From NCBI GenBank assembly GCA_963765535.1, contig CAVXWU010000004.1:593202-657201 (forward strand): 64,000 nt of DNA, in the 5' to 3' direction. The notes beneath the pieces were generated by a model. It was not told the DNA's origin. It saw only the letters and a program-made list of their open reading frames with translations, and ran no database searches. Every line of letters begins with the position of its first letter. Within the stretch, counting starts at the first letter, position 1. The position numbers and the translations under genes were made by a program. This document shows, piece after piece, positions 13,632 through 34,043 of this stretch. The DNA is from an uncultured Verrucomicrobiae bacterium (GTDB lineage: Bacteria > Verrucomicrobiota > Verrucomicrobiia > Limisphaerales > JAHDYP01).

Positions 13632-13850
13632 GGAGAGGTAATTTAGCGATCGACCGAAGCCCTTTTAGCGCAGGTCCCGGGCGCGGGTCAAAGCCTGTTG
13701 ATGATCAGGGTTTTGAAAGATCGCTATAATCCGCGACACTACCGGTACTCGACCGTTGACACCCCCCCGACCTTTGTTAGTCTCGCCACTCCATTTCGAT
13801 GGTTTGTTCGACTTACGGAATCCACTGAAGCGAAAACGCAGGACAGTTCT

Positions 13851-16622
13851 ATGGCCAAAGCATCCAAAGCTCACAAACACGTCTATTCATTCGGGAACAA
13901 GAAAGCCGATGGTGACGGTTCCATGAAACCGTTACTCGGCGGCAAAGGCGCCAATCTCGCGGAGATGACCCGCATCGGACTGCCGGTTCCTCCGGGGTTT
14001 ACTATCACGACCGAAGTCTGCACCTGCTACTACGCTAATAAGCGAACCTACCCGAAAGATCTCCAGCCCCAGATCCAGGCCGGCATCGCCAACATGGAAA
14101 AAATCATGGGCACCCGGTTCGGTGACAGAAATGCCATGCCGCTTTTGGTCGCTGTCCGCTCCGGCGCCCGCGATTCCATGCCCGGCATGATGGACACCAT
14201 TTTGAATCTCGGGTTGAATGACGAAACGGTCCTCGCCCTCGTCAAGGCCACCAAAAACGAACGTTTTGCCTGGGACTGCTATCGTCGCTTTATCCAGATG
14301 TACGGCGATGTCGTCATGGGCGTTCAAAAGCTCCCTCACGAAGATCATGAACCATTTGAGGTTGTTATCCATGCCCTGAAACATGAACGTTACCAGTCCG
14401 ACATCGAAGATACGAAGCTCAGCGTGGACGACCTCAAGGAACTCGTCACCCGTTTCAAGGCTCTCGTCAAGGAACGCACCGGTAAGGCGTTCCCCAATAA
14501 CCCATGGGACCAGCTCAATGGCGCCACCGGCGCTGTCTTCGGTTCCTGGATGAACGATCGCGCCATGGTCTATCGCCGCAAATATAACATCCCCACCGAA
14601 TGGGGAACTGCCGTAAACGTTCAGGCCATGGTCTTCGGCAATACGGGCGAACAGTCCGGCTCCGGCGTGGCCTTCACCCGCGACCCCGCCACCGGCGAAA
14701 AGGTCTTTTACGGTGAGTTCCTGATTAATGCCCAGGGCGAAGATGTCGTCGCAGGTGTGCGCACCCCGGAACCGGTGGCCCAACTCAGGAACCACCTGCC
14801 CAAGGCCTACACCGAACTGGATAACATCCGCAGAACTCTCGAAACCCATTTCAAAGATGTCCAGGACTTCGAGTTTACGATCCAGGACGGCAAGGTCTTC
14901 ATGCTCCAGACCCGCAACGGCAAACGAACCGGTCTTGCCGCCGTCCGTTTTGCCATCGAAATGGAGAAGGAAAGACTCATCGATTGGAAGACCGCCATTC
15001 GGCGCGTTCCGGCCGATCAACTCGACCAGGTTCTGGCTCCAGTGTTCGATCGCAAGGCCGTCAAGGCGGCTCAATGCATCGCCAAGGGACTCCCCGCAGG
15101 CCCCGGCGCCGCCAGCGGCAAAATGTACTTCAATGCCGATCGGGCCGAAACTGCAGCCGCCAAAGGTGAAAAGGTCCTCCTCGTTCGCAATGAAACTTCA
15201 CCGGAGGATCTTCGCGGGATGATTGCCGCCGAAGGCATTCTCACCGCCAAAGGCGGCGTCAGTTCTCATGCCGCCCTGGTGGCTCGACAAATGGGCAAGG
15301 TCTGTGTCTGCGGCGCGAGCGCACTCCAAATCGATTACACGGCCAAGACCGTCACAGTTGATGGGGCCACCTACAAGGAAGGCGACGCGCTTTCAATCAA
15401 TGGCACTGCCGGCGAAGTTTATCCAGGCGATATCCAAACCGCCGCCTCCGAAGTCGTCCAGGTCCTGGTCGAGAAATCCCTGGAACCCAAGGAAAGCCCA
15501 ACTTACCAGATGTTCCAGAAGCTCATGAACTGGTGCGGCAAGGTCAGTCGACTCCAGGTTCGCACCAACGCAGATACACCGGAACAGACCGCCAACGCGG
15601 TCGCCTTCGGCGCCTCCGGAATTGGACTCTGCCGCACTGAACATATGTTCTTCGAAGGAAATCGCATCGACGCCATGCGGGAAATGATCCTTGCGGAAAA
15701 GACCGACGACCGCAAAAAGGCGCTCGCCAAATTGCTGCCCTACCAACGTGAGGATTTTATCGGCATCTTTACCGAACTGAAGGGTCTCCCCGCCACCATC
15801 CGGTTTCTCGATCCGCCTTTGCACGAGTTCCTGCCTCATGACCAGGCAGCTCAGAATAATCTCGCGGAGAAACTGGGTGTGTCCGTCGACAAAATATGCC
15901 AGCGCGTCAAGGAACTGCACGAGTTCAATCCCATGCTCGGTTTCCGTGGTTGCCGCCTCGGTATCGGGTATCCGGAAATCTCCGAGATGCAGGCCCGTGC
16001 CGTCTTCGAGGCCGCGGCTGAAGTCCAGAAGAAGGGCATCAAAGTCAAACCGGAAATCATGATCCCGCTCGTCGGTTTTAAAAGGGAACTCGATCTCCAG
16101 GTCGAATTGGTCCATCGCGTCGCCCAGGAAGTCATGAAGGAGAAGAAGGTCAAACTCAGTTACCTGGTCGGCACGATGATCGAAGTCCCCCGCGGCGCGC
16201 TGACCGCGCGGGAAATCGCCGAAACCGCCCAGTTCTTCAGCTTCGGCACGAATGACCTCACCCAAACCTGCCTCGGCATGAGCCGCGACGATTCCGGTTC
16301 GTTCCTCCCTCGCTACCAGGAACTCGAGATCGCCAAACAAAACCCCTTCGCCTCGATCGATCAGACCGGTGTCGGTCAACTCATGGAACTCGCCGTCGAA
16401 CGCGGACGACAGACCCGACCCGACATCAAACTCGGAATCTGCGGCGAACACGGCGGCGATCCGTCTTCGGTAAAATTCTGCCATCGCATTGGGCTCAACT
16501 ATGTGAGTTGCTCACCCTACCGTGTGCCCGTTGCCCGTCTCGCCGCGGCGCAGGCCGCCCTCGAAGATGAGCCCTCGGCCAAATCGTCCAAGCCCGCCCG
16601 GCGATCCGTGAAACGGAAGTAG
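13851..16622 (+). CDS. ppdK: Pyruvate, phosphate dikinase
   Basis: Track ORF 13698..16622. I moved the start to ATG 13851 ([57 protein letters not shown]), which is the canonical PPDK N-terminus. The phospho-histidine swivel motif is [16 protein letters not shown]. The PEP-utilising C-terminus is [11 protein letters not shown]...ICGEHGGDP. Confidence 0.95.
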
Positions 16623-16691: not shown

Positions 16692-16875
16692 ACGGGGCCC
16701 GCCGCGCCGTAGCGAAGCGCAGGCGGGTGAGGTGAGGGGGAAACACCGTCGCTCGAGATTTGAATCAAGCCGGGCAACACCGTGTTCATGCCGCTCCTGC
16801 AGGCGTATGCGTGTCCGCAACGTTTTGTAGTGCGGCCCGCTGAGCGCAGTGTCGACGGCGTGGCAACATCCCAGG

Positions 16876-16963
16876 GTCGCATCGCGTCGTCCGCGAAGCG
16901 GAGCGCGGTTGTGTCCCGTCTGCGGGACCAGCCGCAGCAACGTCCGACGGTCGCATCACGGTT
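16876..16963 (+). repeat. Left-flank module of composite repeat, copy 1
   Basis: ..GGGTCGCATCGCGTCGTCCGCGAAGCGGAGCGCGGTTGTGTCCCGTCTGCGGGACCAGCCGCAGCAACGTCCGACGGTCGCATCACGGTT. It aligns with 32875..32978 of copy 2 apart from one ~14-nt deletion, a 1-nt indel and a few substitutions. Confidence 0.8.
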
Positions 16964-17685
16964 CGAGGACGAGGGAGGAGGACGAGGGACGAGCACGAGG
17001 GACGAGGACGAGCACGAGGACGAGCACGAGGACGAGCACGAGGGACGAGCACGAGGGACGAGCACGAGGGACGAGCACGAGGGACGAGCACGAGGGACGA
17101 GCACGAGGGACGAGCACGAGGGACGAGCACGAGGGACGAGCACGAGGGACGAGCACGAGGGACGAGCACGAGGGACGAGCACGAGGGACGAGCACGAGGG
17201 ACGAGCACGAGGGACGAGCACGAGGGACGAGCACGAGGGACGAGCACGAGGGACGAGCACGAGGGACGAGCACGAGGGACGAGCACGAGGGACGAGCACG
17301 AGGGACGAGGGACGAGGGACGAGCACGAGGGACGAGGACGAGCACGAGGGACGAGGACGAGCACGAGGGACGAGGACGAGCACGAGGGACGAGGACGAGC
17401 ACGAGGGACGAGGACGAGCACGAGGGACGAGGACGAGCACGAGGGACGAGGACGAGGCACGAGGGACGAGGACGAGCACGAGGACGAGCACGAGGGACGA
17501 GGACGAGCACGAGGGACGAGGACGAGCACGAGGGACGAGGACGAGCACGAGGGACGAGGACGAGCACGAGGGACGAGCACGAGGGACGAGCACGAGGGAC
17601 GAGCACGAGGGACGAGCACGAGGGACAGAGCACGAGGGACGAGCACGAGCACGAGGGACGAGGACGAGGACGAGGACGCACGCGC
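16964..17685 (+). repeat. T-free tandem array 1 (13-bp and 19-bp units built from GAGCAC / GAGGGAC / GAGGAC)
   Basis: The last T before the array is at 16963 and the next T is at 17686. Every base between them on the top strand is G, A or C. GGG recurs every 13 nt from 17042 to 17302, which gives 21 units. A 19-bp periodicity follows from 17321. Confidence 0.95.
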
Positions 17686-17692
17686 TGTTCGT

Positions 17693-17898
17693 GTGCGCGT
17701 AGCCGCAGTAATGTACCCCCCGTCACCTGAGATGGGCGCTTTCCTCTTTCGGGGAATTATTCTGCCCAATAATCATTCTGCCACTCCCCCGCCAACCCGG
17801 ATCGCTCACCCCGAAGTGGCAGGATGATGTCGGCAGAATGATGGGAAGCCTACCGTCTCGTTGCCTGGGAACATTCGACCGGCTCGAACCATTCGCGC
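17693..17898 (+). repeat. Right-flank module of composite repeat, copy 1 (contains four-box ATTCTGCC hairpin 17757..17841)
   Basis: GTGCGCGTAGCCGCAGTAATGTACCCCC...GGGCGCTTTCC.CTTTCGGGGAATTATTCTGCCCAATAATCATTCTGCCACTC...GAAGTGGCAGGATGAT.GTCGGCAGAATGAT.GGAAGCCTACCGTCTCGT.GCCTGGGAACATTCGA.CGGCTCG.ACCATTCGCG. It aligns with 33729..33933 at roughly nine positions in ten by eye. Confidence 0.85.
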
Positions 17899-17971
17899 GT
17901 TGCAGCAACAGCCGACGGTCGCTGCGCGTCGGGTTGCGACATTCTTGAATGCCCCGAACCGCGTGCGCGCG

Positions 17972-18028
17972 TTGCTGCGACTGGCGATTCGGGTCGCGCT
18001 CCAGCCAAGCTGCACGTCGTCCGCGTGC
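17972..18028 (+). repeat. Extra partial copy of the left-flank start segment at the 3' end of copy 1
   Basis: TTGCTGCGACTGGCGATTCGGGTCGCGCTCCAGCCAAGCTGCACGTCGTCCGCGTGC matches 32856..32912 (GCTGCTGCGACTGGCGCTTCGGGTCGCGCTCCAGCCAAGCTGCGCGTCGTCCGCGTGC) with 3 mismatches. Confidence 0.8.
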
Positions 18029-18040
18029 CGCGAGCGGGTA

Positions 18041-18068
18041 ACAGAAAAGGCCCGGCGGATGCCGGGCC
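18041..18068 (-). terminator. Intrinsic terminator of the RRM gene
   Basis: On the minus strand, the stem GGCCCGGC-AUCC-GCCGGGCC (18068..18049) is followed by UUUUCUGU (18048..18041). It lies 27 nt downstream of the RRM gene stop. Confidence 0.65.
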
Positions 18069-18094
18069 TGGGTCAAACTTAGATTATCGGGAAA

Positions 18095-18403
18095 TCAATA
18101 GCGTCCACGGTTACCGTATTCACGGCGACCGCCGCCGCCACCACCCGAACGATCTTCGCGTGGCTTGGCAATGTTGACCGTCAATTCGCGGCCGTCGACA
18201 GATTGGCCGCTGAGGGCGCGGATGGCGGCCTGGGCTTCGTCGGCCGTGCTCATGGTGACGAAACCGAACCCGCGGGGGCGGCCGGTCTCGCGATCCATCA
18301 TCAAATTGACTTCGGAGACGACACCGTGAGCGGAGAAGGCATCCCGCAGTTGGGTTTCAGTGGTATTGAAGGAAAGGTTTCCCACAAATAATTTATTACT
18401 CAT
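18095..18403 (-). CDS. Single-RRM RNA-binding protein with Gly/Arg-rich tail
   Basis: Track ORF of 102 aa. RNP-2 is LFVGNL and RNP-1 is RGFGFVTM. The tail is REDRSGGGGGGRREYGNRGRY. This is the architecture of bacterial Rbp-type glycine-rich RNA-binding proteins. Confidence 0.9.
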   Translation of the reverse strand: MSNKLFVGNLSFNTTETQLRDAFSAHGVVSEVNLMMDRETGRPRGFGFVTMSTADEAQAAIRALSGQSVDGRELTVNIAKPREDRSGGGGGGRREYGNRGRY

Positions 18404-18629
18404 ACTTGATGTTTTCTGCCCAGACGAACCGGTTCTTTTGCCAGACTGTTCCCGAACATCGGGTCTAAAATCATCACTGAACTGAGTTCAACTGAGGATT
18501 CACCATGCCTTGAAAGAGACAAGCTATCGCGCAGGACGCGGGACAAACTGACAGGCCGGAGTGGGAAAGCAAGCCTTATCTTTGCCATTGGGAGTCTGCG
18601 ATTCATTGACATGCCCTTTCTCCGGGAGG

Positions 18630-21600
18630 ATGTTGCGACGCATGATTTCCCGGCGGTTGTTGCAATCTTTTCGTTCAGGTTGTCTCCTGGTTTCTCTCTT
18701 CCTCGCCGTTGGAGCGCTCCAGGGACAAGTCATTCTCAGTGAATTCATGGCGGACAATGAATCCACGCTGGCCGATGAGGATGGAACCTATTCCGATTGG
18801 ATTGAGGTTTACAACACCGGGGCCAGCGCGGTGGACCTCGCCGGCTGGGCGTTGACCGGAGATCCATTGCATCAGGCGCTATGGGGGTTTCCTTCCACGA
18901 ACTTGCCGCCCAAGGGTTTCCTTGTCGTTTTTGCATCAGGAAAAAACCGCGCGGTGGCGGGCGCGCCGCTGCACACCGATTTCAGTCTTAAGGCGAGCGG
19001 AGAATACCTGGCGCTGCTCGAACCGGGAGGAGGCGTCGCCACGGAATTTGCGCCGGCGTTTCCGTCACAATATCCCGACGTCTCTTACGGTGTGGTCCAG
19101 GAAGTCACCACGAATGCATTCGTGCCCTCCGGCGCGCCCGTGCGGGTTTGGATCCCCTCGAGCGCACAGGGTTCGACCTGGACGCAGCCCGCGTTTAACG
19201 ATGCCGGCTGGACAAGCGGATCGACCGGCGTGGGGTACGAGATCGCCGTTCCCGGTTTTGCCGCATTATGCTACGTGGCCAACGTAGGGGTCTGCAGCCT
19301 GGGCGCGGCGGAAGGCGTGGTCAACAATCCCGGGCAACAGTTCTCAGTCGCGGCCGAGAACGCCGCAGTGTTGAATTACCTGAACACGGCTGACTCGGCG
19401 CATTACGGCAACGACCGCGCGTTTCCGGGGCTGCCGATCGGTCCCGATCGCGATAATTTCGTGCTCGAGGCCACGGCCACGATCACCATCCCCGCGGCGG
19501 GCAACTGGACTTTCGGCGTCAACAGCGACGACGGTTTCTCGCTGGAGATCGGAAGCTTTTACATGTCCTACCCGGACCCGCGCGGTCCCGCGGACACCCT
19601 CCAAACGTTCAATTTTCCGGCGGCGGGCGACTATCCGCTGCGCCTGCTGTTCTACGAATGCGGCGGGGGTTCGGAAGTTGAATTGTTCGCCGCGGCCGGG
19701 AGTTACGCGGCATGGGACCCGACCCATTTTCATCTGGTGGGTGACATGGCGAATGGAGGATTGTCCGTTTTGTCTCCCGTGATCTCCGGTGGTGAGGGGA
19801 CGGCGAGTTATCGGCCGTTGCTCGCCACAGATGTGGAGTCCCCGATGCTCGGGGTGAACGCCTCGGCCTATCTGCGGCTACCCTTTACCGTGGCGGATCC
19901 GGCGGCGCTCGAGTCGCTCACGTTGCGGATGCGATACGACGATGGTTTTGTCGCCTATCTCAACGGACAGGAAGTTGCCCGTCGCAACGCGCCGGCCGCT
20001 CCTTTATGGAACTCGGCGGCAACTGCGGCTCATCCCAACGATCAGGCGCTGATTTTCGAGGATTTCAATCTGTCCGACCGGCTCAACCTGCTTCAGCCGG
20101 GAAACAACCTGCTGGCGATCCAGGGACTCAACCGTTCGGCCGCCGACACTGATTTCCTGATCATGCCGGAGCTCCTGGAGCTCCAAATCACCGACGCCGA
20201 CACGCAGTACTTCGCCAAAGGATCGCCGGGGGCGCCTAATGGCGCCGGATTTGTGGCCTTTGTGGCGGATACGAAATTCGACCATGACCGCGGTTTTTAC
20301 GACGCTCCTTTTCAACTCTCGATCACGACGGCCACGCCGGGAGCGACCATCGTCTACACGACCGACGGTTCGGTGCCGTCGCTGACCCATGGCACGGTCG
20401 TCAGCGGTCCGATACCGATCAGCGCCACCACCGTCATTCGGGCGTCGGCGTTCAAGGCGGGTTTCGCACCATCCGGAGTGGATACCCAAACCTATCTCTT
20501 CACCGCCGATATCATTCATCAGTCACCCACGGGCCAGCCCCCCCCCGGTTGGCCGGCAAGTTGGGGCGCGAACGTGGTGGATTACGGCATGGACCCGGAT
20601 GTGGTGAACGCTCCGGCCTATGCCGGCGAAATCGAGGACGACCTGAAATCGATTCCGACGTTTTCGATCGTGACCGAGTCCGGCAACCTGTTCGATCCGG
20701 CTACGGGCATTTACGCCAACGCCAGCCAGGATGGCCGGGACTGGGAACGTCCGGCCTCGGTCGAGCTGATTTATCCAGACGGCACTCCCGGTTTTCAAGT
20801 CAATGCCGGCCTTCGGATTCGGGGCGGTTACAGCCGGAGTTCAAACAATCCGAAACACGCCTTTCGACTTTTTTTCCGCCAGGAATACGGGGCGTCGAAG
20901 TTGGATTATCCGATGTTTGAGCATCAGGGCGGCACGGAAACCTTCGACGCCTTCGACTTGCGAACATTTCAGAATTACTCCTGGAGTTTCGAAGGCGATT
21001 ACCGGTTCATCGGCCTGCGCGACCAGTTCTCGCGCGATGCGCAATTGGCCCTCGGCCAACCCGGAGAACGGGGCGACTTCTATCACCTTTACATCAACGG
21101 GCAGTATTGGGGGATCTTCAACACCGCCGAGCGGCCGGAGGCCTCTTTCGGCGCCAGTTATTTCGGAGGGGACAAAGATGATTACGATGTCATCAAGGTG
21201 GATACCGGCGCGGGCTACACCATCTTCGCGACCGATGGGAACATGGATGCCTGGACGCGTCTTTGGCAGGCCGCTACCAATGGGTTCGCCACGGACGCCG
21301 CATATTTTAAAGTGCAGGGGAGAAACACCGACGGCACGCCTAACCCGGCGTTCGAGAATCTACTGGATGTGGACAACCTGATCGACTACATGCTGGTGAT
21401 CTTTTTCACGGGCAACATCGACGCGCCGATCTCGGCCTTCATCGGCAACACGAATCCGAACAACATGTACGCCGTTCGGAATCGCACAGGGCTCTATGGC
21501 GGCTTTCGATTCCTGGCGCACGACTCCGAACACACTCTCCTGCACGAATCGTCGCTTGGGAACAACGACGAACTCCATCGCGATCGCACGGGGCCGTTTG

Positions 21601-24600
21601 CCGCGGGCGATCCCACGCAACAAGGAGCGGCGGGCGCACTGGCCCGGAGCAATCCGCAGTATTTCTTTACCCGGTTGACCGCCAACGCCGAGTTTCGCCT
21701 GCGCGTGGCCGATCACATTCGCAAGGCGTTCTTCGATGGCGGCGTGTTGAGCCCCGAAGGTTGCCGTGCCCTTTTCACGGCGCGCAGCAATGAAGTCTAC
21801 CATGCGATCGCGACCGAGTCGGCCCGCTGGGGCGACTCCAAACGTTCCACCCCCCGCACCCGCAATGAAGACTGGGCTCTCGAAATGAGCCGGGTCTATG
21901 GAGATTATTTCAACCAACGGACCGGGATTGTTCTCGGGCAATTAACAGCCAAAGGACTCTACCCGAACGTCGACGCCCCATCCTTGAATCCCAATGGCGG
22001 CCTCGTGCCGCCCGGATCCACCGTGACGATGGCTGCGCCGGCCGGCACGATCTACTACACCCTCGATGGATCGGATCCGCGGCTGCGCGGTGGCGGGGTG
22101 GCTGCGACCGCGCAGATCTACTCCAGCCCATTGACCTTGTCCCAGAGCGTTCGGATCAAGGCCCGCGCGCTGAGTGGCGGCACCTGGAGCGCGCTGACCG
22201 ACGCGACGATTTACCTCAACCGGGATTTCACAGACCTCCTGGTTACGGAGATCATGTACCATCCTCAGGCGGCGGCGACGTTTGACAGCGAGGCTTTGGA
22301 GTTCCTCGAATTGAAGAACGTCGCGAGCACGAACCTCGAACTCAGCGGTGTGCATTTCACCGATGGGATCCAGTACTCCTTCCCACTCGGCATGCTCCTT
22401 GGTCCGGGCCAGTTCGCGGTGCTGGTTAGTGATCCGGTCGCCTTTGCCAGCCGATACCCCGGGGTGCGCGTCGATGGCGTGTTCACCAATCACCTCTCCA
22501 ACAGCGGCGAACGAGTGATCCTGGCCCACGCCAACGATGTTCCGATCTTTTCCGTGGCATACGAGGCCGCCCTTCCCTGGCCGGTCACGGCCGATGGAAC
22601 GGGATTCTCGCTCGTGCCCCTGAATCCGAATCTTAATCCGGACCCGAGTAGTGCATTGAATTGGCGGAGCAGCGCCTCGATCGGCGGGTCGCCGGGCGCG
22701 GACGATCCGCCCTCGTTCCTTCCCCGGATCCTGGTGAACGAAGCGCTTACGCACACGGACCTGCCGCAACTGGATTCCATCGAGCTCTACAATCCTAATC
22801 TGACGAATGTGGACGTCGGTCATTGGTTCCTGACCGACCAGCGGAATCTCCCCGGCAAGTATGCATTTCCTTCGCCCACCATCATCCCGGCCGGTGGCTT
22901 TTTGGTTCTGACCGAAAACGACTGGAACCCCGATCCGCTTTCGACCAACGGTTTCCGGCTCAATTCTCATGGCGAAGAAATCTATCTCTACTCAGCCGAC
23001 GCCATCGGCCAACTTACCGGTTACAGCGACGGGTTCGCCTTCGGTGCCGCGCAGAACGGGGTGACTTTCGGGCGTTACCTCAATAGCGTGGGCGAAATCC
23101 TCTATCCCGCGCAGACCGCCAACACCCTGGGTGCGCCCAACGCCGGGCCGCGGGTGGGACCGGTAGTCATCAACGAAATCCGTTATCATCCCGCGCCGGG
23201 AGACGAGGAGTTTGTGGAGCTGAAAAACATCACCAACGCGCCCGTGAAGCTTTACGATCCCAATTTTCCCACCAACACGTGGCGCGTCGAAGGATTGGGC
23301 TACCGATTCCCGGAGAACGTCGAGATATCCGCCAATGGACTGCTCCTGCTCGTGGCGGCCGATCCGGCAACGTTTCGGACGAAGTATGGTGTCCCGGCGG
23401 CCGTTCCCATTCTGGGCCCGGTCCCGGGCACGTTGCAGGACAGCGGTGAGTCTCTGGCCCTCCAACGACCCGATACGCCGGACCTGGACACCAATACCGG
23501 CGCGATCTTCATTCCGCAGATCGACGTGGACGTCGTGCGATACAATGACAAGTCCCCCTGGCCCACCAACGCCGATGGCTTCGGTCCGTCCCTCGAACGG
23601 CTCGACGCCCGCGCCTATGGGAACGACCCGGTCAACTGGCGGGCCAGTCCGGGTCCTGCGTCACCCGGCCAAGAAAACACGGGCAACCGTCTGCCGCTGG
23701 TGGAGGCCGGCGCGGATGTGTCACTGACCGCCGCGACGTTTCCGTTGAACGTTCCGCTGGCCGGTTCCGCCCAGGACGACGGTCTCCCGAATCCGCCGGG
23801 CGCATTGACATTGACCTGGAGCCAGGACACCGGCCCGGGCCTCGTCGCGTTCAGCAATGTACACTTGTCGAATCCTTCGGCGAGCTTCCCTGGCGTGGGC
23901 ACGTATGGCCTGCGGCTTACGGCCGACGACGGTGCCCTGCAGGTAAGCGACGTGCTCAGCGTGACGATTGACCGGCTCCCTTCAAATGTGCCGATTGTGA
24001 GCAAAGGCTCGGCCTGGAAATACCTCGACAACGGATCGGACCAGGGATCGGCCTGGACATCGCCTACATTCAACGATGCAAGCTGGCCATCCGGGTCGGC
24101 CCCGCTCGGATACGGAGACGCCGACGGTGTGTTGCCCGTTACGCTGGTGGGCTATGGTCCCGACGCCAACAACAAGTACCTCACCACCTATTTCCGCCAG
24201 ACGTTCAATGTGTCTAATCCGGCCGATGTCACGGCCCTGACACTGAGCGTGCAGCGGGATGACGGAGTTGTGGTTTATCTCAATGGCGCTGCCGTCTTCG
24301 TCGACAACATGCCGGCCGGACCGATCGGATACCTGACCTCCGCCGTCACCGCCGTGGGCGGCGCGGATGAAACAACATTCTATATCCAGTCCATTGATCC
24401 GGCCCTGCTGCGCCAGGGGGCGAATGTCGTGGCCGCTGAAATCCATCAGGCCGGCGGGAACAGCAGCGATATCATCTTCGATCTCGAACTTATCGGACTG
24501 GGATATTCCGCTAACCAGGCGCCCACAGCCAATGCGGGCCCGGACCAGGCCGTGACCCTCCCTGCCACGGCAGAGCTTCACGGTACCGCGAGTGATGATG

Positions 24601-25049
24601 GCCTGCCGATCCCGCCCGGCCTGCTCACCTTCACCTGGTCGAAAGTCAGTGGCCCGGGATCCGTCATTTTTTCAAACCCCTATGCGCTCGAAACCAGCGC
24701 GAGTTTCTCGGCATCGGGTACGTATGTGCTCCGCCTGACGGCTGCCGACGGCGTATTCTCCGTGAACGACGATCTGACGGTTACAGTGAGCGGGCAGACG
24801 CAGTCGCCGCCAGAGTTCGAGTCCGTTGCCTGGGATGCATCCCAACCTCCGGTGTTGCGCCTGACATTCACCGCCGTCGCCGGGCGAACCTATACTGTCC
24901 AATACCGGGATACGCTGGAGCCGGGTTTATGGTCGAAACTGGCGGACATCCCTGGCCAGGTTCAATCCGGTCCGGTGGAGGTGCAGGACTCGAACGTGTC
25001 GGAGAACACCACGCGCTTTTATCGAATTGTCACTCCTCAACAACCATAG
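18630..25049 (+). CDS. Giant secreted Lamin-tail-domain (LTD) / PA14 / CotH-family protein (2139 aa)
   Basis: Track ORF 18561..25049. I moved the start to ATG 18630, which has GGGAGG just upstream and a signal-peptide-like MLRRMISRRLLQSFRSGCLLVSLFLAVGALQGQ. LTD modules include VILSEFMADNES..WIEVYNTGASAVDLAGWAL, LLVTEIMYHPQ, ILVNEALTHTD and VVINEIRYHPAPGDEEFVELKN. A PA14-like block is GNWTFGVNSDDGFSLEIG..YPLRLLFYECGGGSEVELF. The CotH core is HAFRLFFRQEYGASKLDYPMF..FYHLYINGQYWGIFNTAERPE. Two Ig/PKD-like modules are present (..ANAGPDQAVTLP..). A C-terminal RFYR module is also present. Confidence 0.85.
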   Translation: MLRRMISRRLLQSFRSGCLLVSLFLAVGALQGQVILSEFMADNESTLADEDGTYSDWIEVYNTGASAVDLAGWALTGDPLHQALWGFPSTNLPPKGFLVVFASGKNRAVAGAPLHTDFSLKASGEYLALLEPGGGVATEFAPAFPSQYPDVSYGVVQEVTTNAFVPSGAPVRVWIPSSAQGSTWTQPAFNDAGWTSGSTGVGYEIAVPGFAALCYVANVGVCSLGAAEGVVNNPGQQFSVAAENAAVLNYLNTADSAHYGNDRAFPGLPIGPDRDNFVLEATATITIPAAGNWTFGVNSDDGFSLEIGSFYMSYPDPRGPADTLQTFNFPAAGDYPLRLLFYECGGGSEVELFAAAGSYAAWDPTHFHLVGDMANGGLSVLSPVISGGEGTASYRPLLATDVESPMLGVNASAYLRLPFTVADPAALESLTLRMRYDDGFVAYLNGQEVARRNAPAAPLWNSAATAAHPNDQALIFEDFNLSDRLNLLQPGNNLLAIQGLNRSAADTDFLIMPELLELQITDADTQYFAKGSPGAPNGAGFVAFVADTKFDHDRGFYDAPFQLSITTATPGATIVYTTDGSVPSLTHGTVVSGPIPISATTVIRASAFKAGFAPSGVDTQTYLFTADIIHQSPTGQPPPGWPASWGANVVDYGMDPDVVNAPAYAGEIEDDLKSIPTFSIVTESGNLFDPATGIYANASQDGRDWERPASVELIYPDGTPGFQVNAGLRIRGGYSRSSNNPKHAFRLFFRQEYGASKLDYPMFEHQGGTETFDAFDLRTFQNYSWSFEGDYRFIGLRDQFSRDAQLALGQPGERGDFYHLYINGQYWGIFNTAERPEASFGASYFGGDKDDYDVIKVDTGAGYTIFATDGNMDAWTRLWQAATNGFATDAAYFKVQGRNTDGTPNPAFENLLDVDNLIDYMLVIFFTGNIDAPISAFIGNTNPNNMYAVRNRTGLYGGFRFLAHDSEHTLLHESSLGNNDELHRDRTGPFAAGDPTQQGAAGALARSNPQYFFTRLTANAEFRLRVADHIRKAFFDGGVLSPEGCRALFTARSNEVYHAIATESARWGDSKRSTPRTRNEDWALEMSRVYGDYFNQRTGIVLGQLTAKGLYPNVDAPSLNPNGGLVPPGSTVTMAAPAGTIYYTLDGSDPRLRGGGVAATAQIYSSPLTLSQSVRIKARALSGGTWSALTDATIYLNRDFTDLLVTEIMYHPQAAATFDSEALEFLELKNVASTNLELSGVHFTDGIQYSFPLGMLLGPGQFAVLVSDPVAFASRYPGVRVDGVFTNHLSNSGERVILAHANDVPIFSVAYEAALPWPVTADGTGFSLVPLNPNLNPDPSSALNWRSSASIGGSPGADDPPSFLPRILVNEALTHTDLPQLDSIELYNPNLTNVDVGHWFLTDQRNLPGKYAFPSPTIIPAGGFLVLTENDWNPDPLSTNGFRLNSHGEEIYLYSADAIGQLTGYSDGFAFGAAQNGVTFGRYLNSVGEILYPAQTANTLGAPNAGPRVGPVVINEIRYHPAPGDEEFVELKNITNAPVKLYDPNFPTNTWRVEGLGYRFPENVEISANGLLLLVAADPATFRTKYGVPAAVPILGPVPGTLQDSGESLALQRPDTPDLDTNTGAIFIPQIDVDVVRYNDKSPWPTNADGFGPSLERLDARAYGNDPVNWRASPGPASPGQENTGNRLPLVEAGADVSLTAATFPLNVPLAGSAQDDGLPNPPGALTLTWSQDTGPGLVAFSNVHLSNPSASFPGVGTYGLRLTADDGALQVSDVLSVTIDRLPSNVPIVSKGSAWKYLDNGSDQGSAWTSPTFNDASWPSGSAPLGYGDADGVLPVTLVGYGPDANNKYLTTYFRQTFNVSNPADVTALTLSVQRDDGVVVYLNGAAVFVDNMPAGPIGYLTSAVTAVGGADETTFYIQSIDPALLRQGANVVAAEIHQAGGNSSDIIFDLELIGLGYSANQAPTANAGPDQAVTLPATAELHGTASDDGLPIPPGLLTFTWSKVSGPGSVIFSNPYALETSASFSASGTYVLRLTAADGVFSVNDDLTVTVSGQTQSPPEFESVAWDASQPPVLRLTFTAVAGRTYTVQYRDTLEPGLWSKLADIPGQVQSGPVEVQDSNVSENTTRFYRIVTPQQP

Positions 25050-31100: not shown

Positions 31101-32822
31101 GTCGCGCTTGATGGCCTGTTCCTGACCGATGATCTGTCGGATCCGAACAAGTCACCGATTCCACCCCTCAGTTTCATCGGGACTGGCGGCGACGCCTGGG
31201 CGGTGTTCATTGCCGATAGCAGGCCCGGCGACGGAGCGGATCATGTGGACTTCTCGTTGAGCAAATCCGGCGAAGCCCTCGGGTTGTTCTCGCCCGCGGG
31301 AGTTATGATCGACGGCGTGACCTTTGGTCCCCAGCCCCTGGATGTGGCGCAGGGGCGCCTGCCTGACGGTTTCCCGACGATCGTGAATTTCGCCAGCACC
31401 GCCTCGCCCGGAACATCCAATTTTCTGCCGTTGCCCGGCGTGGTCATCAACGAGGTGCTGACGCATACCGACCCGCCGCTGGAGGACGCCGTGGAGTTCT
31501 TCAACCTCACTCCCGTCGGCGTCAACGTGGGAGGCTGGTACCTCAGCAACTCAAGGGATGACTTCAAGAAATACCGGATCCCCGATGGAACCATCCTCCC
31601 CGCCAACGCCTTCCTCGTCCTCTACGAAGGCCAGTTCAATGCCGGCGCAACCCCATTCACGTTCAATTCCGCCCACGGCAATCGGGCCATCCTCTCCCAG
31701 GCCGACGCCCAGGGCAACCTCACCGGCTACCGCGCCGAGATGGAGTTCGGCGCCGCCGCTAATGGCGTCTCATTCGGTCGCATCCCTACCAGTGTCGGCT
31801 TCGACTTCACCGCCGTGAGCGCGACTTCCTTCGGGGCCGATCAGGCCGTCACTGTGGATGAGTTTCGCATGGGCGCCGGTCTACCCAACACCGAAGCCAA
31901 GGTCGGTCCCGTGGTGCTCAGCGAAATGCTCTACTATTCGGCCACCGGCGGCCTGGAAAACGACGAAGACGAGTTCATCGAACTGGAGAACATCAGCGGC
32001 GCCCCGGTGCGGCTCTATGATCCCGGTTATCCCACGAACACCTGGAGTCTGCGGAGCGCCGTCGACTTCGTATTTCCGAGCAACGTCATGCTCGATGCCG
32101 GAGGCCGGCTGTTGGTCGTCGGTTTTCCACCCACCGATCCCCAACTGCTGGCACAGTTCCGCGCCAGGTTCAGTGTGCCCGCCGCTGTTCCTGTTTTCGG
32201 CCCATGGAGCGGACATCTCGCCAACGACAGCGACAGCGTGGAACTCTACCGCCCCGATACCGTGCAGTTGCCGCCTCATCCGGATGCCGGTTTCGTGCCC
32301 CAGATCCTGGTGGACAAGGCGGACTATGCCGCGGTTGCACCGTGGCCCGCTGCCGCGGCCGGTGGCGGCAATTCCCTGCAGCGCCTGAACCTTTCCCGCT
32401 ACGGCAATGACCCGGCCAATTGGTCGGCCGCCATACCTACCGCGGGCCGAGCGAATATGGCCGATCCTACCGACACCGATCATGACGGTCTGCCCGACGT
32501 GTGGGAACTCACCTACTTCGGCACCCTTGATCGCGACGGCACCGACGACCTGGATGGCGATGGCATCACCGACTTCGGAGAGTATTTGGCCGGCACCTCG
32601 CCAATCGGGGATTTCCGTTTCCTCTCCGTATCCCTGGGGACGGTGGTTTCCTTGGAGTTCGTGTCTCAGTTCGGCCGGCCCACAACCGTCGAATACCTCG
32701 ACAACCTGGGCGGCCTATGGCAAACGCTCACCAACGTGCCCGCGCCGGCGCAAACGACCCGAATCATGGTGACCGACGCCTACCCGACCGGGACGCGCTT
32801 TTATCGTCTGGTCGCCCCGTGA
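25173..32822 (+). CDS. Giant secreted LTD / CotH / beta-helix protein, paralogue of the upstream gene (2549 aa)
   Basis: Track ORF 25101..32822 starts at a TTG. I moved the start to ATG 25173 (MPILTAVRSRFVLLVLMLFVLVSVRAQN). LTD modules include VLVTEIMVHPP, VRLNEVLASNRS, LKINEWLADAQ, VLLNEVLARNQ, LRINEWMADPS, VVINEVLTHTD and VVLSEMLYYSA. The CotH core is YNCGVRNRGHGTRVANPNNYHVNIPSD..INLNAHYAYSQVLGSAVFRRLGVP. A parallel beta-helix region is GVTLTLEPGLTVYLGPGVNLVVANGGRLLAEGT... Acidic Ca-binding-type repeats are DTDHDGLPDVWE..DLDGDGITDFGE. The C-terminus ends TRFYRLVAP. Confidence 0.85.
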   Translation: MPILTAVRSRFVLLVLMLFVLVSVRAQNVLVTEIMVHPPGTNLLEQWFELQNRGPAAVDLSGWRVTRGVDYLFPSNTVLAAGGYLVVAADRQTFSGLHPTVTNFVGGWESTIGHALELTDRSNRVVHAVEFYDQGDWAVRQMGPPHFNHTGWEWHAEFDGLGASLELINPALPDGYAHNWGSSTVMGGTPGRPNSIASSNNAPLIADVHHRPVIPQPSDPVTVTARVVDELSVGLVVSLHWRVDGAASFNVIAMADDGAHGDGTSGDGLFGAILPAQPDLTVVEFYLQAQDQGGNLRTYPVFIPPTNSTRTANLLYQVDSGAYAGTQPVYRIIMRGVERAELFDLGRQFPDADSDAQMNATWISSDGVVSGGSTTQIRYNCGVRNRGHGTRVANPNNYHVNIPSDRLWKGQAGINLNAHYAYSQVLGSAVFRRLGVPMADSRAVQVRVNGIDLMASVGGDSFGSYAANEQYNKDFVQRSWPIDPGGNAYRGIRGPTETGPQIEADLTWHGPDFFVSGSYTNAYFKQNNFVQNDYSDLLELLGVLNEIPGYSSSAAYVTDVNRVIDVEAWMRYMAINTLLANGETCLANGVGDDYALYRGTLDTRFEVLPYDLDTVMGRGLTPTSPRNGLWRMTNLPVMDRFMKTPEFAPVYYRQLKTLADTAFSTAQMDPLLDQLFQGYVPQETIDTMKAFNASHVAYVLSQIPNTLVVSNNLPILNGYPHTTVPIIALTGAANALNTRTVLVGGGAATYSAWEGTWSINGIVLYPGINRLLVQALDADGQEVGRATDDVWYDDGAAQSAGGTLQTDTTWTAAAGPFDITSTLTVAAGVTLTLEPGLTVYLGPGVNLVVANGGRLLAEGTETAPIRFTRLPGATTAWGGITINGGIGSPETRITHAHLEFNGSTAIHSSGGTVFLDHLTFGSTDHQYISLDGSSFVVSHSDFPTPTAGFELLHGTGGIKAGGYGIFYRNFVGAPNGYNDAIDFTGGNRPGQPLVHFLENVFVGSGDDLLDLDGTDAWVEGNIFMHCHKNGSPDSSSAVSGGDDGNATSEITIVGNLFYDCDHAATAKQGNFYTLLNNTIVHQIHEGGTDTAGALMNFADAGTTEGAGAYLEGNIVVDAEALVRDQNAAIVTFTNNLLPFPWSGPGGANSTADPRLKYIPQLAETTQFSSWEEAQVLRDWFSLMPGSPAIGTGPNHLDKGGVVPMGASVSGEPSGTNNLTSATLEVGFNRAGSGIPVAGFPEGSGYVAYRYRLDGAAWSTERDIHMPISLVNLSSGPHRVEVSGKRDTGPFQDDPVFGDAALVSTSRTWTVDPGAVPSNLPTVRLNEVLASNRSVLTNGAATPDIVELFNFGSASVDLSGMGLTDNADLPYKFTFAAGTQLAGGAFLVLYGDNDFTAPGVHLGFSIKASGDNVLLHAAAAKGGQPLDQVVFGLQIADYSIGRVPDGTWTLCEPTFGSPNVTAGLGRYWDLKINEWLADAQFAANNDFVELYNPEPQPVPLGGLYLSDAAGAPDRHPIAPLSFISGAGYTPFIADSQPNQGADHLNFKLSPDVGLLLLSAPDLTLIDAINYGPQQTDVSQGRSPDGSETLADFTQPSDGGPNPGLGGVISVTNVTQTIEPLLEVTTSAWRFDSSGIDYGTGWRLPGFDDSGWNSGFGLFGRETTPQVYPYPFQTAIPAPSQSGGHITVYYRTHFSWTEALAEFQLIATNYVDDGAVFYLNGVEVGRLRVSADPVLYASTASNQDNEGAPERLVFPTNSLVRGDNVIGAEVHQANSGSSDDVFGVSLAAIQFTTNIVTQTFGVPVLLNEVLARNQTLTNHLGHTADYVELFNPSTNTVDLSGLSLSTDPNDSRRWVFPANRSLAPSAYTVIYLDDAAPASPTNTGFALGANGDVLYFFNRPLGGGALVDSIRFGRQTPDFSIGRTPDAAGHWTLNLPTPGGPNSSAGLANISALRINEWMADPSKGSDWLELANSAGQPVALDGLFLTDDLSDPNKSPIPPLSFIGTGGDAWAVFIADSRPGDGADHVDFSLSKSGEALGLFSPAGVMIDGVTFGPQPLDVAQGRLPDGFPTIVNFASTASPGTSNFLPLPGVVINEVLTHTDPPLEDAVEFFNLTPVGVNVGGWYLSNSRDDFKKYRIPDGTILPANAFLVLYEGQFNAGATPFTFNSAHGNRAILSQADAQGNLTGYRAEMEFGAAANGVSFGRIPTSVGFDFTAVSATSFGADQAVTVDEFRMGAGLPNTEAKVGPVVLSEMLYYSATGGLENDEDEFIELENISGAPVRLYDPGYPTNTWSLRSAVDFVFPSNVMLDAGGRLLVVGFPPTDPQLLAQFRARFSVPAAVPVFGPWSGHLANDSDSVELYRPDTVQLPPHPDAGFVPQILVDKADYAAVAPWPAAAAGGGNSLQRLNLSRYGNDPANWSAAIPTAGRANMADPTDTDHDGLPDVWELTYFGTLDRDGTDDLDGDGITDFGEYLAGTSPIGDFRFLSVSLGTVVSLEFVSQFGRPTTVEYLDNLGGLWQTLTNVPAPAQTTRIMVTDAYPTGTRFYRLVAP

Positions 32823-32855
32823 CCGGCGAGAAACACTGATTCAAACCCTTCGCAC

Positions 32856-32978
32856 GCTGCTGCGACTGGCGCTTCGGGTCGCGCTCCAGCCAAGCTGCGC
32901 GTCGTCCGCGTGCGGAGCGCGGCTGTGTTCCGTCTGCGGGACCAGCCGCAGCAACACCCCGACGGTCGCATCACGGTT
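32856..32978 (+). repeat. Left-flank module of composite repeat, copy 2
   Basis: It starts 34 nt after the stop of the 2549-aa gene. See copy 1 (16876..16963 and 17972..18028) for the aligned sequence. Confidence 0.85.
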
Positions 32979-33721: not shown

Positions 33722-33728
33722 TCTTCGA

Positions 33729-33933
33729 GTGCGCGTAGCCGCAGTAATGTACCCCCGTCGCCCGACATGGGCGCTTTCCGCTTTCGGGGAATTATTCTGC
33801 CCAATAATCATTCTGCCACTCACCCGCTAACCCGGATCGCTCACCCCGAAGTGGCAGGATGATTGTCGGCAGAATGATTGGAAGCCTACCGTCTCGTCGC
33901 CTGGGAACATTCGAGCGGCTCGGACCATTCGCG
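33729..33933 (+). repeat. Right-flank module of composite repeat, copy 2 (four-box hairpin 33792..33877)
   Basis: It aligns with 17693..17898. A degenerate copy of the left-flank start follows at 33934..33975 (GCTGCTGCGGCTGGCGCTTCGCGCACAGTCGCGCTCC). Confidence 0.85.
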
Positions 33934-34043
33934 TGCTGCTGCGGCTGGCGCTTCGCGCACAGTCGCGCTCCGGCAATCGCCGGAGCAGCTTGACAAACGG
34001 CAGCAGCAGCAGAGCATAGCCTCGAGTTTATCTGCTCCGTCCT

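Follow-up and report, generated by a model that had tools for sequence, protein, structure and literature searches.

The question raised by this locus is what kind of element can occupy 722 consecutive nucleotides of a bacterial chromosome without a single T, and whether it carries a message beyond its own repetition. In the window, by which we mean the whole 64-kb (64,000-nt) stretch of DNA that was analysed, the top strand between the T at 16963 and the T at 17686 comprises 224 A, 160 C and 338 G, in agreement with the first-pass annotation, which had reported T to be absent there; purines make up 77.8% of this strand. With both T-free arrays listed in Table 1 set aside, the longest T-free run elsewhere in the window measures 48 nt, and, taking T at roughly 20% (estimated from the GC content of the window), a run of 722 nt cannot be due to chance.

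Table 1. Coordinates of the two arrays, their flanking elements and the neighbouring gene, numbered from the first letter of the window.
Feature	Position	Strand	Basis
Array 1, T-free, read here as a compound minisatellite	16964-17685 (722 nt)	+	TRF, exact counts, word census
Block of 21 perfect 13-mers, GAGCACGAGGGAC	17034-17306	+	Exact count
19-mer block, GAGCACGAGGGACGAGGAC	17321-17561	+	Word census, exact count
Second 13-mer block, 5 perfect units	17562-17626	+	Exact count
Array 2, no T	32979-33721 (743 nt)	+	TRF, exact counts, word census
5′ flank, module 1	16883-16963	+	91.5% identical to 32898-32978, two 1-nt indels
3′ flank, module 1, long imperfect foldback	17686-17906	+	92.3% identical to 33722-33942, two 1-nt indels
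REP-like unit (TGCTGCGACTGGCGATTCGGGTCGCGCTCC...), module 1	17966-18037	+	90% identical to 32851-32922; alignment, pattern count
Module 2 upstream part: REP-like unit (32851-32922) overlapping 5′ flank (32898-32978)	32851-32978	+	Alignment, pattern count
Module 2 3′ foldback (33722-33942; core 33790-33879), then REP-like unit (about 33925-33975)	33722-33975	+	Alignment, fold, inverted repeats, pattern count
rbp gene, 102-aa RRM-domain RNA-binding protein	18095-18403; with terminator 18048-18403	-	Pfam RRM_1, E = 3.6e-23; ORF

Tandem Repeats Finder (TRF), which had been suggested as a check on array 1, recovered a period of 13 (CGAGCACGAGGGA; 54.8 copies, 89% match) and, over 16964-17675, also a period of 19. 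The tract is written in the words GAGGGAC (43 occurrences), GAGCAC (43) and GAGGAC (19), together with four variant tokens, and its previously described blocks could all be reproduced: the 21 consecutive 13-mers and the five later ones are perfect by exact count, and the intervening 19-mer block, said to contain variant words, resolves into seven perfect units (17321-17453) and four more (17486-17561), separated by a GAGGCAC variant unit and a 12-mer. With short units standing head to tail at high identity, and 21 of them perfect in succession, the tract is a tandem repeat. Variant words lie at both array edges, where they are older, and the interiors are block-structured; one such word at the 5′ edge of array 1, GAGGGAGGAGGAC, resembles the word of a second array.

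This second T-free array, overlooked in the first pass, is built from a single 18-nt unit, GAGGACGAGCACGAGGAG (41 copies, 98% match in TRF). Both arrays consist of one 11-nt core, CGAGCACGAGG, joined by differing purine-rich linkers, and the period is 13, 19 or 18 nt because the linker in use sets the spacing of the core: in array 1, GA gives the 13-nt period, GACGAGGA the 19-nt period and A a 12-nt period, and in array 2, where the spacing is strictly 18 nt, the linkers are AGGAGGA (30 times) and AGGAGAA (10 times). Despite this complete linker turnover and a flank divergence of ~8%, the arrays are nearly equal in core number (42 and 41 copies) and in length (722 and 743 nt).

By alignment, the arrays belong to two paralogous copies of one ~1.05-kb intergenic module. 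Its parts, in order, are a GC-rich 5′ hairpin, the T-free array, a 3′ foldback of ~220 nt in which the ATTCTGCC box occurs four times, and a REP-like unit. The nested GC-rich hairpin of module 1 (16903-16938, GCGCGGTTGTGTCCCGTCTGCGGGACCAGCCGCAGC) stands in a flank that ends ...CATCACGGTTC at the array border, that of module 2 lies at 32917-32952, and the hairpin is predicted in both copies, also when full modules are folded. Downstream of array 1, the foldback has a folding energy of -91.2 kcal/mol (z = -3.3), and its core (17756-17842) holds the four ATTCTGCC/GGCAGAAT boxes; inverted repeats were found in the 3′ flanks of both modules, and the foldback pattern can be written ATYATTCTGCC N5 ATCATTCTGCC ... 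GGCAGRATGAT. Nine box matches occur in the window against 1.4 expected, eight of them inside the two foldbacks. The 3′ flank of module 1 also contains a weak terminator-like hairpin on the + strand (17741-17756) and a promoter-like site on the - strand (17784 to 17756). A 31-codon ORF in the 3′ flank (MGAF..IILPNNHSA..) was considered and set aside, all three differences between the copies being non-synonymous. In the REP-like segment of module 1, the unit itself gives way to a further 5′ flank, of which the first ~25 nt are present before it is cut off ahead of the rbp terminator; three exact copies of the REP-like pattern occur in the window, every one beside the modules, and no RAYT transposase is encoded within its 64 kb. 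Searches outside the window returned no Rfam match, whether at gathering thresholds or with the cut-off relaxed to E<=5, no relevant paper for the box sequences, no metagenome match for a 23-mer from the 5′ flank and no relevant match to the element in viral, plasmid and phage collections, and a 21-mer from the foldback matched only a ~30-nt double box in three other phyla.

The two modules differ in their surroundings. Array 1 sits between the convergent 3′ ends of the gene for PPDK (pyruvate-phosphate dikinase), whose stop codon lies 340 nt upstream, and of rbp, whose intrinsic terminator runs from 18069 to 18048 on the - strand. The RRM-protein neighbour is present at module 1 only, no convergent gene follows module 2, and the sequence that precedes module 1 is unrelated to the one that precedes module 2. 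The modules are direct repeats with 15 kb between them, and the genes of the region include two giant LTD/CotH genes.

Long open reading frames cross array 1 in all six frames, which the first-pass annotation ascribed to the lack of T on the top strand and of A below; this explanation holds, all three + frames being stop-free over the array (open at 16844-17827, 16764-17702 and 16831-17730) and the three - frames giving ORFs of 256-358 aa. A genuine protein might nevertheless be sought here, with the arrays encoding an acidic, His-rich or other low-complexity product and array 2 possibly being reached by a frameshift from the giant gene upstream. The 18-nt unit of array 2 indeed reads EDEHEE with 100% GC3, in a frame that is open from 32773 to 33738 and overlaps the last 50 nt of that gene, and 49 of 65 metagenome matches to the core have 15- or 18-nt periods, many of them in long open frames with an acidic or His-rich (DEHE-type) reading; the one viral-contig match that was inspected was confirmed as coding. 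However, the EDEHEE frame contains no ATG, GTG or TTG, the 13- and 19-nt periods of array 1 are not multiples of three, and 1-nt indels in both flanks mean that no frame is kept into the arrays. Further stops lie between the PPDK stop codon and array 1, none of seven array ORFs has a Pfam match, and an array ORF found no homologue among 5.8 billion proteins. The triplet unit, start codon and frame conserved between copies that mark a low-complexity coding repeat are thus not combined here, and a protein search with a composite six-frame translation of the flanks revealed no spurious ORFs elsewhere. The protein-coding reading is largely refuted already and we give it next to no weight; as the first pass had concluded, array 1 appears to be non-coding and probably yields no protein. 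For annotation, this carries a warning, in that six stop-free frames produce phantom ORFs of 250-360 aa.

The strand bias of the repeat had also led to the proposal that it adopts an unusual DNA structure. A G-rich non-template strand could form R-loops, long-loop G-quadruplexes (G4) or triplexes, with effects on replication, transcription or recombination, and the top strands of both arrays, with 47-49% G and 78-83% purine, have the general composition for it. The H-DNA candidate nevertheless fails, since an intramolecular triplex calls for a long uninterrupted mirror homopurine tract, and here C interrupts the purines every 6-7 nt and no mirror homopurine tract exists. Purine runs reach at most 12 nt in array 1, where those in the body stop at 6 nt, and at most 11 nt in array 2. 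A G4 is expected from at least four G-runs of at least three, separated by loops of 1-7 nt, or from a G4Hunter score above about 1.2-1.5. The GGG runs of array 1 are split by loops of 10 or 16 nt, outside the canonical range, and G4Hunter, the scoring suggested in the first pass, gives means of 0.68 for array 1 and 0.62 for array 2; the best 25-nt window reaches 1.24 in array 1, which makes the G4 candidate marginal at most, and 0.88 in array 2. R-loop predictors such as QmRLFS use a G-cluster initiation pattern (G3+ N1-10 G3+ N1-10 G3+), required here to be followed by at least 40% G. The 13-mer blocks, with a GGG every 13 nt (G3-N10-G3-N10-G3, 47% G), fit this pattern and are candidates for R-loop formation, unlike the 19-mer block, with its 16-nt gaps, and array 2, which contains no GGG at all. 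Neither a G4 nor G-cluster R-loop initiation is therefore common to both arrays, and the R-loop pattern, restricted to the 13-mer blocks, cannot be a conserved property of them. On balance, a role as a non-B DNA or R-loop element seems unlikely. A CRISPR array was likewise rejected, the words being contiguous and without unique spacers.

The history of the locus is better approached through its relatives. Seven contigs from related genomes carry a PPDK orthologue (94-95% identical in protein, 83-85% in nucleotides), and none of them has the array or the foldback; six reach past PPDK, and synteny is lost right after the gene. On this comparison the array is lineage-specific. In one relative (L005), the outer stem of the 5′ hairpin and a diverged REP-like unit are present ~25 nt apart, against ~940 nt (array plus foldback) in the window, an arrangement that is the "empty" hairpin-plus-REP version of the module. 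The core also recurs, at non-triplet periods, in short arrays on 16 metagenome contigs that are unrelated and whose array flanks are unrelated as well, and CACGAG-type words are therefore recurrently prone to slippage.

Taken together, these observations lead us to read array 1, at a probability of roughly 0.55, as a genuine non-coding compound minisatellite in a Verrucomicrobiota-type chromosome, one of two paralogous modules, which was grown and homogenised by slippage, recombination or conversion. The array would have started as a short seed of the CGAG/CAC type within a hairpin-REP element that already existed, and its lack of T would go back to founder words that had none by chance. Recurrent replication slippage, together with unequal recombination and gene conversion, would keep re-homogenising it, which would explain why each whole block has a single linker and why the two paralogues have nevertheless become completely different. 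The dynamic, slippage-type behaviour anticipated in the first pass thus gains indirect support from a sister array whose unit is wholly different although its flanks are 91-92% identical, and further from the absence of the array in those relatives' contigs that extend beyond PPDK; slippage itself is inferred from such comparisons. Mis-assembly of low-complexity reads, which might have created the arrays or set their lengths, is a very improbable alternative. Long perfect repeats are difficult to assemble, and the window has no match in the searched collections; yet two independent arrays with homologous flanks ~8% diverged share precise junctions, their blocks are ordered and their variant words structured, and similar short arrays recur in independent metagenomes.

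Some features fit the minisatellite reading less comfortably. Near-equal core number and length are not what unconstrained slippage predicts, although this is a single comparison; the flanks are strongly structured; and the extreme properties common to both arrays (no T, no CC, weak folding) could reflect selection and not descent. The array sequence is exceptionally unstructured and strand-asymmetric. For its + strand RNA the predicted folding energy per nt lies between -0.08 and -0.13 kcal/mol, 5-6 SD weaker than the background (-0.36 +/- 0.045), and with neither T nor CC this RNA contains no YC dinucleotide, the background being 15.9 +/- 2.0 per 100 nt. The - strand RNA, with a predicted -0.17 to -0.24 kcal/mol per nt (background -0.36), has a C/G ratio of 2.1-2.9 and 40-43 YC per 100 nt; in the background this density never exceeds 21.9.

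These + strand properties invite the idea of a functional RNA. Transcribed either independently or by extension of the upstream gene's 3′ end, the module could form a scaffold or sponge in which flank hairpins protect a ~730-nt single-stranded tract for a protein that binds single-stranded RNA, for example the RRM protein encoded next to module 1 or one resembling CsrA. The tract, without U, YC, start or stop codons, would offer such a protein an 11-nt site repeated identically ~42 times, together with 67-113 GGA motifs, and the missing U would blunt cleavage by RNase E, as the missing YC would blunt Rho loading. In favour of this idea are the near-absence of structure in the + array RNA between structured flanks on both sides, the zero YC count, the conserved core counts and a weak terminator-like hairpin with a T-rich tail 55-70 nt past the end of both arrays. 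In the 5′ hairpin, both substitutions between the copies (2/2) change C-G to U-G and so preserve pairing on the + strand, whereas the - strand would have A-C mismatches. Bacterial RRM-1 proteins bind single-stranded RNA regions (PMC11697453), and an RRM-protein gene adjoins module 1. Against it, that gene is found at module 1 only, no sigma-70-like + promoter was detected within the conserved 5′ flank or ahead of it, the modules being preceded by unrelated sequence, and the element is absent from related genomes. Rfam, including its CsrB/Rsm families, gives no match, and the abundant GGA motifs lie outside hairpin loops in an unstructured RNA, which is not how CsrB/Rsm sponges present them. 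Covariation in the 3′ foldback, for which we make no claim, is not robust, with three compensatory pairs in RNAalifold on the two copies but three pairs kept and five broken in a single-copy structure test. A scaffold or sponge function is therefore doubtful, and it is improbable that the module specifies a bacterial non-coding RNA of a new type, with two terminal hairpins and a ~730-nt U-free and YC-free tract whose ~42 sites of 11 nt serve as a multivalent scaffold or sponge (for the RRM protein, for example), the number of sites being selected and the linkers free. A Shine-Dalgarno sponge was also considered, array 2 having 71 GGAGG, and was dropped, the window genes showing no obvious upstream SD.

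The opposite strand suggests a polar transcription insulator, in which read-through RNA from the - strand (720 nt, unstructured, A-free, C-rich and YC-dense) would be an ideal loading site for Rho, stopping antisense transcription before it reaches the upstream gene, and the + transcript would remain invisible to Rho. Published predictors of Rho-dependent termination are an uninterrupted excess of C over G for at least ~80 nt, weak structure and a spacing of 9-13 nt between YC dimers (PMC6144790), and the - strand transcript would carry such rut features; on the + strand, G exceeds C. Array 1 lies directly behind the convergent rbp terminator and ahead of PPDK, and both arrays have the same polarity relative to the upstream + genes. 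This polarity, however, is an automatic result of the words used, no convergent gene lies downstream of module 2, and Rho dependence here is predicted from sequence features. Moreover, ~80 nt of C-rich RNA is enough for Rho, which leaves 720 nt and the repeat structure unexplained, and we regard the insulator as a long shot.

Most likely, then, the array is a young, lineage-specific and fast-evolving minisatellite, unusually long and strand-asymmetric, and in this ordinary reading the locus offers a clean natural example of a bacterial minisatellite that swaps its unit fast while its flanks barely change. If core number (42 and 41) and strand polarity proved to be selected, the modules would instead represent a new design principle, either a three-letter single-stranded RNA tract that evades nucleases and Rho or a one-way transcription insulator, in a phylum whose post-transcriptional regulators are almost unknown.

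Several known systems share individual features with these modules. Immunoglobulin class-switch regions, which are eukaryotic, AID-targeted, R-loop-forming G-rich repeats with denser G clusters, resemble them in being kilobase-scale tandem repeats with a G-rich non-template strand, on which G clusters recur periodically and GAGC-type words occur; array 2, by contrast, does without GGG altogether. The sponge RNAs CsrB, RsmY and RsmZ similarly display one short motif multivalently, and the 67 and 113 GGA motifs of the two arrays occur in a local context, CGAGGACG, one mismatch from the CsrA-type binding consensus, CANGGANG. The tract here is 2-3 times longer, its GGA motifs are not in hairpin loops, it lacks an Rfam match, and no promoter was identified for it. 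REP/BIME elements are short, imperfect GC-rich palindromes scattered through extragenic DNA and often found in clusters, and the flanks contain a candidate of this type, a dispersed, ~45-60-nt GC-rich palindromic unit (GCGAC...GTCGC), present in 3-4 copies beside the modules, on one strand and at gene 3′ ends, with one more in L005; the array itself is neither palindromic nor a REP, and the window lacks a RAYT transposase. The predicted - strand transcript is comparable to rut regions and C>G bubbles (PMC6144790) in its uninterrupted C>G skew, YC density and weak structure, but natural rut sites are ~80 nt long, non-repetitive and diffuse, unlike a 720-nt tandem repeat. Another comparison is with the perfect tandem repeats of Borgs, extrachromosomal elements of Methanoperedens, which are young and near-perfect, mostly have intergenic units not divisible by three, are T-depleted on the gene-carrying strand and are missing or different in close relatives (PMC9879509). 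The arrays described here are likewise near-perfect, T-free and missing in relatives, and the 13- and 19-nt units of array 1 are not divisible by three. Borg repeats, however, are A-rich, and the archaeal element that carries them is AT-rich and has short, unique arrays by the hundred; the present arrays are only two, long and written in G, A and C, belong to a bacterial chromosome that is GC-rich, and have one core and homologous flanks in common. Bacterial intergenic minisatellites, or VNTRs, such as the MIRU-type loci used for strain typing, provide a further parallel, being head-to-tail, non-coding intergenic repeats with a homogenised interior, degenerate edges and fast paralogue turnover, consistent with slippage and unequal recombination. 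Compared with MIRU-type loci, the present units are much shorter (12-19 nt) and their copy number much higher (~42), and the arrays combine a strict three-letter alphabet with a constant 11-nt core and interchangeable linkers; each is enclosed by flanks that fold and are conserved, and the two copies have almost equal numbers of cores.

The two T-free arrays of this window are probably bacterial minisatellites, and the best-supported reading is that they represent a young, lineage-specific, non-coding compound minisatellite. As the first-pass annotation had described, array 1 (16964-17685) comprises 722 nt without T and has a T at either border; its composition is A 224, C 160, G 338, T 0, and a chance origin of its T-freeness is excluded because T-free runs outside both arrays reach only 48 nt in the 64-kb window. 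TRF returned periods of 13 (CGAGCACGAGGGA) and 19, and exact matching recovered the 13-mer and 19-mer blocks noted earlier as runs of perfect units (see the table). When cut at C|GAG, array 1 resolves into GAGGGAC (43), GAGCAC (43), GAGGAC (19), and four variant tokens. Its sister, array 2 (32979-33721; 743 nt, T 0), which the first-pass annotation had overlooked, consists of 41 copies of the 18-nt unit GAGGACGAGCACGAGGAG with a 98% match. Both are built from an 11-nt core, CGAGCACGAGG, plus a purine-rich linker: the 42 cores of array 1 are joined by GA (24, 13-nt period), GACGAGGA (11, 19-nt period), A (3), or odd linkers (3), and the 41 cores of array 2, in strict 18-nt spacing, by AGGAGGA (30) or AGGAGAA (10). 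The core occurs nowhere else on either strand of the window. With one shared core and swappable linkers, the "three words, two periods" of array 1 are thus reducible to core plus linker choice. The edges of array 1 retain older variants, including GAGGGAGGAGGAC, which is similar to the array-2 word, a pattern typical of arrays homogenised from inside.

Coordinates of the mapped features, in window positions
Feature	Position	Strand	Basis or remark
Pyruvate-phosphate dikinase (PPDK)	13698-16622	+	
Nested GC-rich hairpin, 5′ flank	16903-16938	+	fold prediction
13-mer block, 21 perfect units	17034-17306	+	exact matching
19-mer block, 7 perfect units	17321-17453	+	exact matching
19-mer block, 4 perfect units	17486-17561	+	exact matching
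Second 13-mer block, 5 perfect units	17562-17626	+	exact matching
Foldback core, four ATYATTCTGCC/GGCAGRATGAT boxes	17756-17842; module 2, 33790-33879		
Strong intrinsic terminator of RRM_1 gene	18069 to 18048	-	
RRM_1 RNA-binding protein, 102 aa, glycine/arginine-rich tail	18095-18403	-	convergent on module 1
Giant LTD/CotH protein	18561-25049	+	
Giant LTD/CotH protein, 2573 aa	25101-32822	+	
DUF1559/N-methyl protein	34044-34820	+	

In a self-comparison, 16883-17906 aligns to 32898-33942, and both arrays therefore lie within one module of ~1.05 kb, composed of a 5′ hairpin, the array, a 3′ foldback, and a REP-like unit. Between the two modules, identity is 91.5% over the 5′ flanks (81 nt) and 92.3% over the 3′ flanks (221 nt), with two 1-nt indels in each flank pair, and the array junctions are precise in both, starting after ...CATCACGGTTC and ending before T(G/C)TTCG(T/A)GTGCGCGTAGCCGCAGTAATG. 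A different repeat unit between such similar flanks indirectly supports the dynamic behaviour proposed for the array from its sequence. Two substitutions separate the 5′ hairpin copies, and both change C-G to U-G on the + strand, a weak hint that this strand may fold. The 3′ flank of module 1 is predicted to form a long imperfect hairpin (-91 kcal/mol, z = -3.3), and comparison of the two foldbacks gave no robust covariation signal. The REP-like unit (TGCTGCGRCTGGCGNTTCG...GTCGCGCTCC), a GC-rich palindrome, follows each module and also precedes module 2 (17973, 32858, and 33937), is confined within the window to these positions beside the modules, and has a diverged copy in the related genome L005 (13925-14000).

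The double box of the foldback, ATYATTCTGCC-N5-ATCATTCTGCC, recurs with 21-30 nt of identity in contigs L001 (7293-7490), L002 (5322-5590), and L003 (1363-1383), labelled KSB1, Lentisphaerales, and 'proteobacterium'; candidate identities are a protein-binding site and the end of a MITE. In L001, a ~200-nt palindromic element has the box as its two ends; the L002 copy lies next to (CCTGCTC)n, which on the opposite strand is (GAGCAGG)n, a GAG-word repeat lacking one base. The 12-mer TTCTGCCCAGAC, adjacent to the box in L002, is also present in the 5′ leader of the RRM_1 gene.

All six frames of array 1 are free of stop codons, which accounts for the long ORFs seen in the first-pass annotation, and its non-coding status is upheld by the sequence: periods of 13 and 19 rotate the frame, none of the seven array ORFs had a Pfam match, and neither an array ORF nor a six-frame composite of the flanks found a homologue among 5.8 billion proteins. 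No frame is conserved from the flanks into the arrays, because the flank copies differ by 1-nt indels. In array 2, the GC3-rich frame reading EDEHEE stays open over 32773-33738 and contains no ATG, GTG, or TTG; it opens 50 nt ahead of the stop codon that ends the giant gene of 2573 aa. A frameshift near the end of that gene would append a ~300-aa acidic, His-rich tail, for which array 1 offers no counterpart. A 31-codon ORF spanning the boxes, MGAF(L/R)FRGIILPNNHSAT... (17732-17827 and 33767-33862), was rejected, all three differences between its copies being non-synonymous; its IILPNNHSA segment is just the box in translation, and ORFs of this kind might wrongly be annotated as small proteins. 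Rfam yielded no family match at gathering thresholds; relaxing the cut-off to E<=5 added only noise resembling terminators.

Array 1 lies between convergent gene ends, since PPDK (+) and the RRM_1 gene (-) flank it, and array 2 directly follows the second giant LTD/CotH gene. The modules form ~1-kb direct repeats around ~15 kb carrying the RRM_1 gene and both giant genes, a segment that might be lost or amplified through homologous recombination between the modules. The sequences 5′ of the two modules are unrelated, and no + strand promoter was found within or ahead of the conserved 5′ flank in either. Both foldbacks contain a predicted - strand promoter-like site (GTGGCA-17-AATAAT) directed into the array, and a weak terminator-like hairpin with a T-rich tail is predicted on the + strand 55-70 nt past each array. 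The PPDK protein has its best matches (94-95% identity) in metagenome bins, and named matches at 85-87% are mostly Verrucomicrobiae/Verrucomicrobiota MAGs, with a few labelled otherwise, e.g., Limnocylindrales and Binatia; the DUF1559, FG-GAP/ASPIC, and LTD/CotH gene content would fit a PVC bacterium.

Neither the array nor the foldback was found in any of seven relatives' contigs whose PPDK gene is 83-85% identical at the nucleotide level. Synteny with the window is lost immediately after PPDK in all six contigs reaching beyond it, and gene order 3′ of PPDK varies among them and from the window, placing the module at a synteny breakpoint. In L005, the 5′ hairpin, its outer stem conserved, is followed ~25 nt on by a REP-like unit; array plus foldback occupy ~940 nt at this place in the window, and the L005 arrangement resembles an unoccupied form of the module site.

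Three CGAGCACGAGG cores, searched with gaps, matched 65 metagenome contigs. In 49, the period is 15 or 18 nt, many lying in long open frames with an acidic/His-rich (DEHE-type) reading and being putatively coding; the other 16 have periods of 13, 14, 16, 17, or 19 nt in T-free arrays of 38-145 nt, and the five inspected are all intergenic and come from unrelated genomes. Short loci of this type include L043, L051, L058, and L066; L010 carries a 158-nt period-18 array that is likewise intergenic and immediately past a stop codon. All of the 65 matches are <=158 nt, although several reach contig ends and may truly be longer. Since such cores recur in unrelated contigs, CACGAG-type words constitute a recurrent slippage-prone substrate. 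None of the 65 shares the module flanks, and among the matches elsewhere the length, module, and duplication seen in the window have no counterpart. In the unrelated contig L050 (75% GC), 615-860 holds a T-free (GAGCACGAGGGAC)n array and, ~60 nt on, an (GTGTCCCC/GGTTCCCC)n array that lacks A. The two make up a partial inverted pair and lie upstream of a divergent gene.

The analysis shows the anatomy of the arrays, their paralogy, their non-coding status, their absence from relatives, and the recurrence of similar short arrays in other contigs; for the minisatellite, we infer a slippage mechanism and an absence of function. Expansion would have occurred inside a hairpin-REP intergenic element, the expanded array would then have been duplicated together with its flanks, and slippage, unequal exchange, and conversion would maintain internal uniformity. 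On this reading, founder words without T account for the T-freeness and for the six open frames. Two features resist a purely neutral account: the near-equal core number and length (42 vs 41; 722 vs 743 nt) despite complete linker turnover, and the extreme, polar, unstructured composition kept in both arrays between strongly folded flanks. Three functional rivals therefore stay in play.

The first is that the arrays may act as a scaffold or sponge RNA, perhaps one for the neighbouring RRM protein, since binding to single-stranded regions is described for bacterial RRM-1 proteins (PMC11697453). Predicted folding per nt is -0.08 to -0.13 kcal/mol for the + strand arrays and -0.17 to -0.24 for the - strand, against a background of -0.36 +/- 0.045, and only 7-8 of the 16 dinucleotides are present. 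A ribosome sponge acting through the 71 GGAGG of array 2 is disfavoured: no obvious Shine-Dalgarno sequence precedes the window genes in the 30 nt ahead of 21 ORF starts, which suggests that initiation in this organism may be largely SD-independent. Secondly, the arrays may serve as a one-way Rho insulator. Rho-dependent terminators are described by C>G skew, weak structure, and regularly spaced YC (PMC6144790); the + strand arrays have 0 YC (background 15.9 +/- 2.0 per 100 nt), because neither U nor CC is present, and the - strand has 40-43 per 100 nt with a C/G ratio of 2.1-2.9. By these descriptors, Rho would have an extreme substrate in the - strand transcript and none in the + strand transcript. 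The third candidate, an R-loop element, had been raised by the first-pass annotation along with other non-B DNA and may hold in part only, as array 2 contains no GGG. The G-quadruplex proposal failed for the same reason and on G4Hunter scores (means 0.68 and 0.62, best 25-nt windows 1.24 and 0.88, for arrays 1 and 2); H-DNA/triplex did not hold either, with longest purine runs of 12 and 11 nt. In behaviour, the closest published analogue of the minisatellite is found in the intergenic tandem repeats of Borg elements, which are likewise T-depleted, non-triplet, and rapidly arising (PMC9879509).
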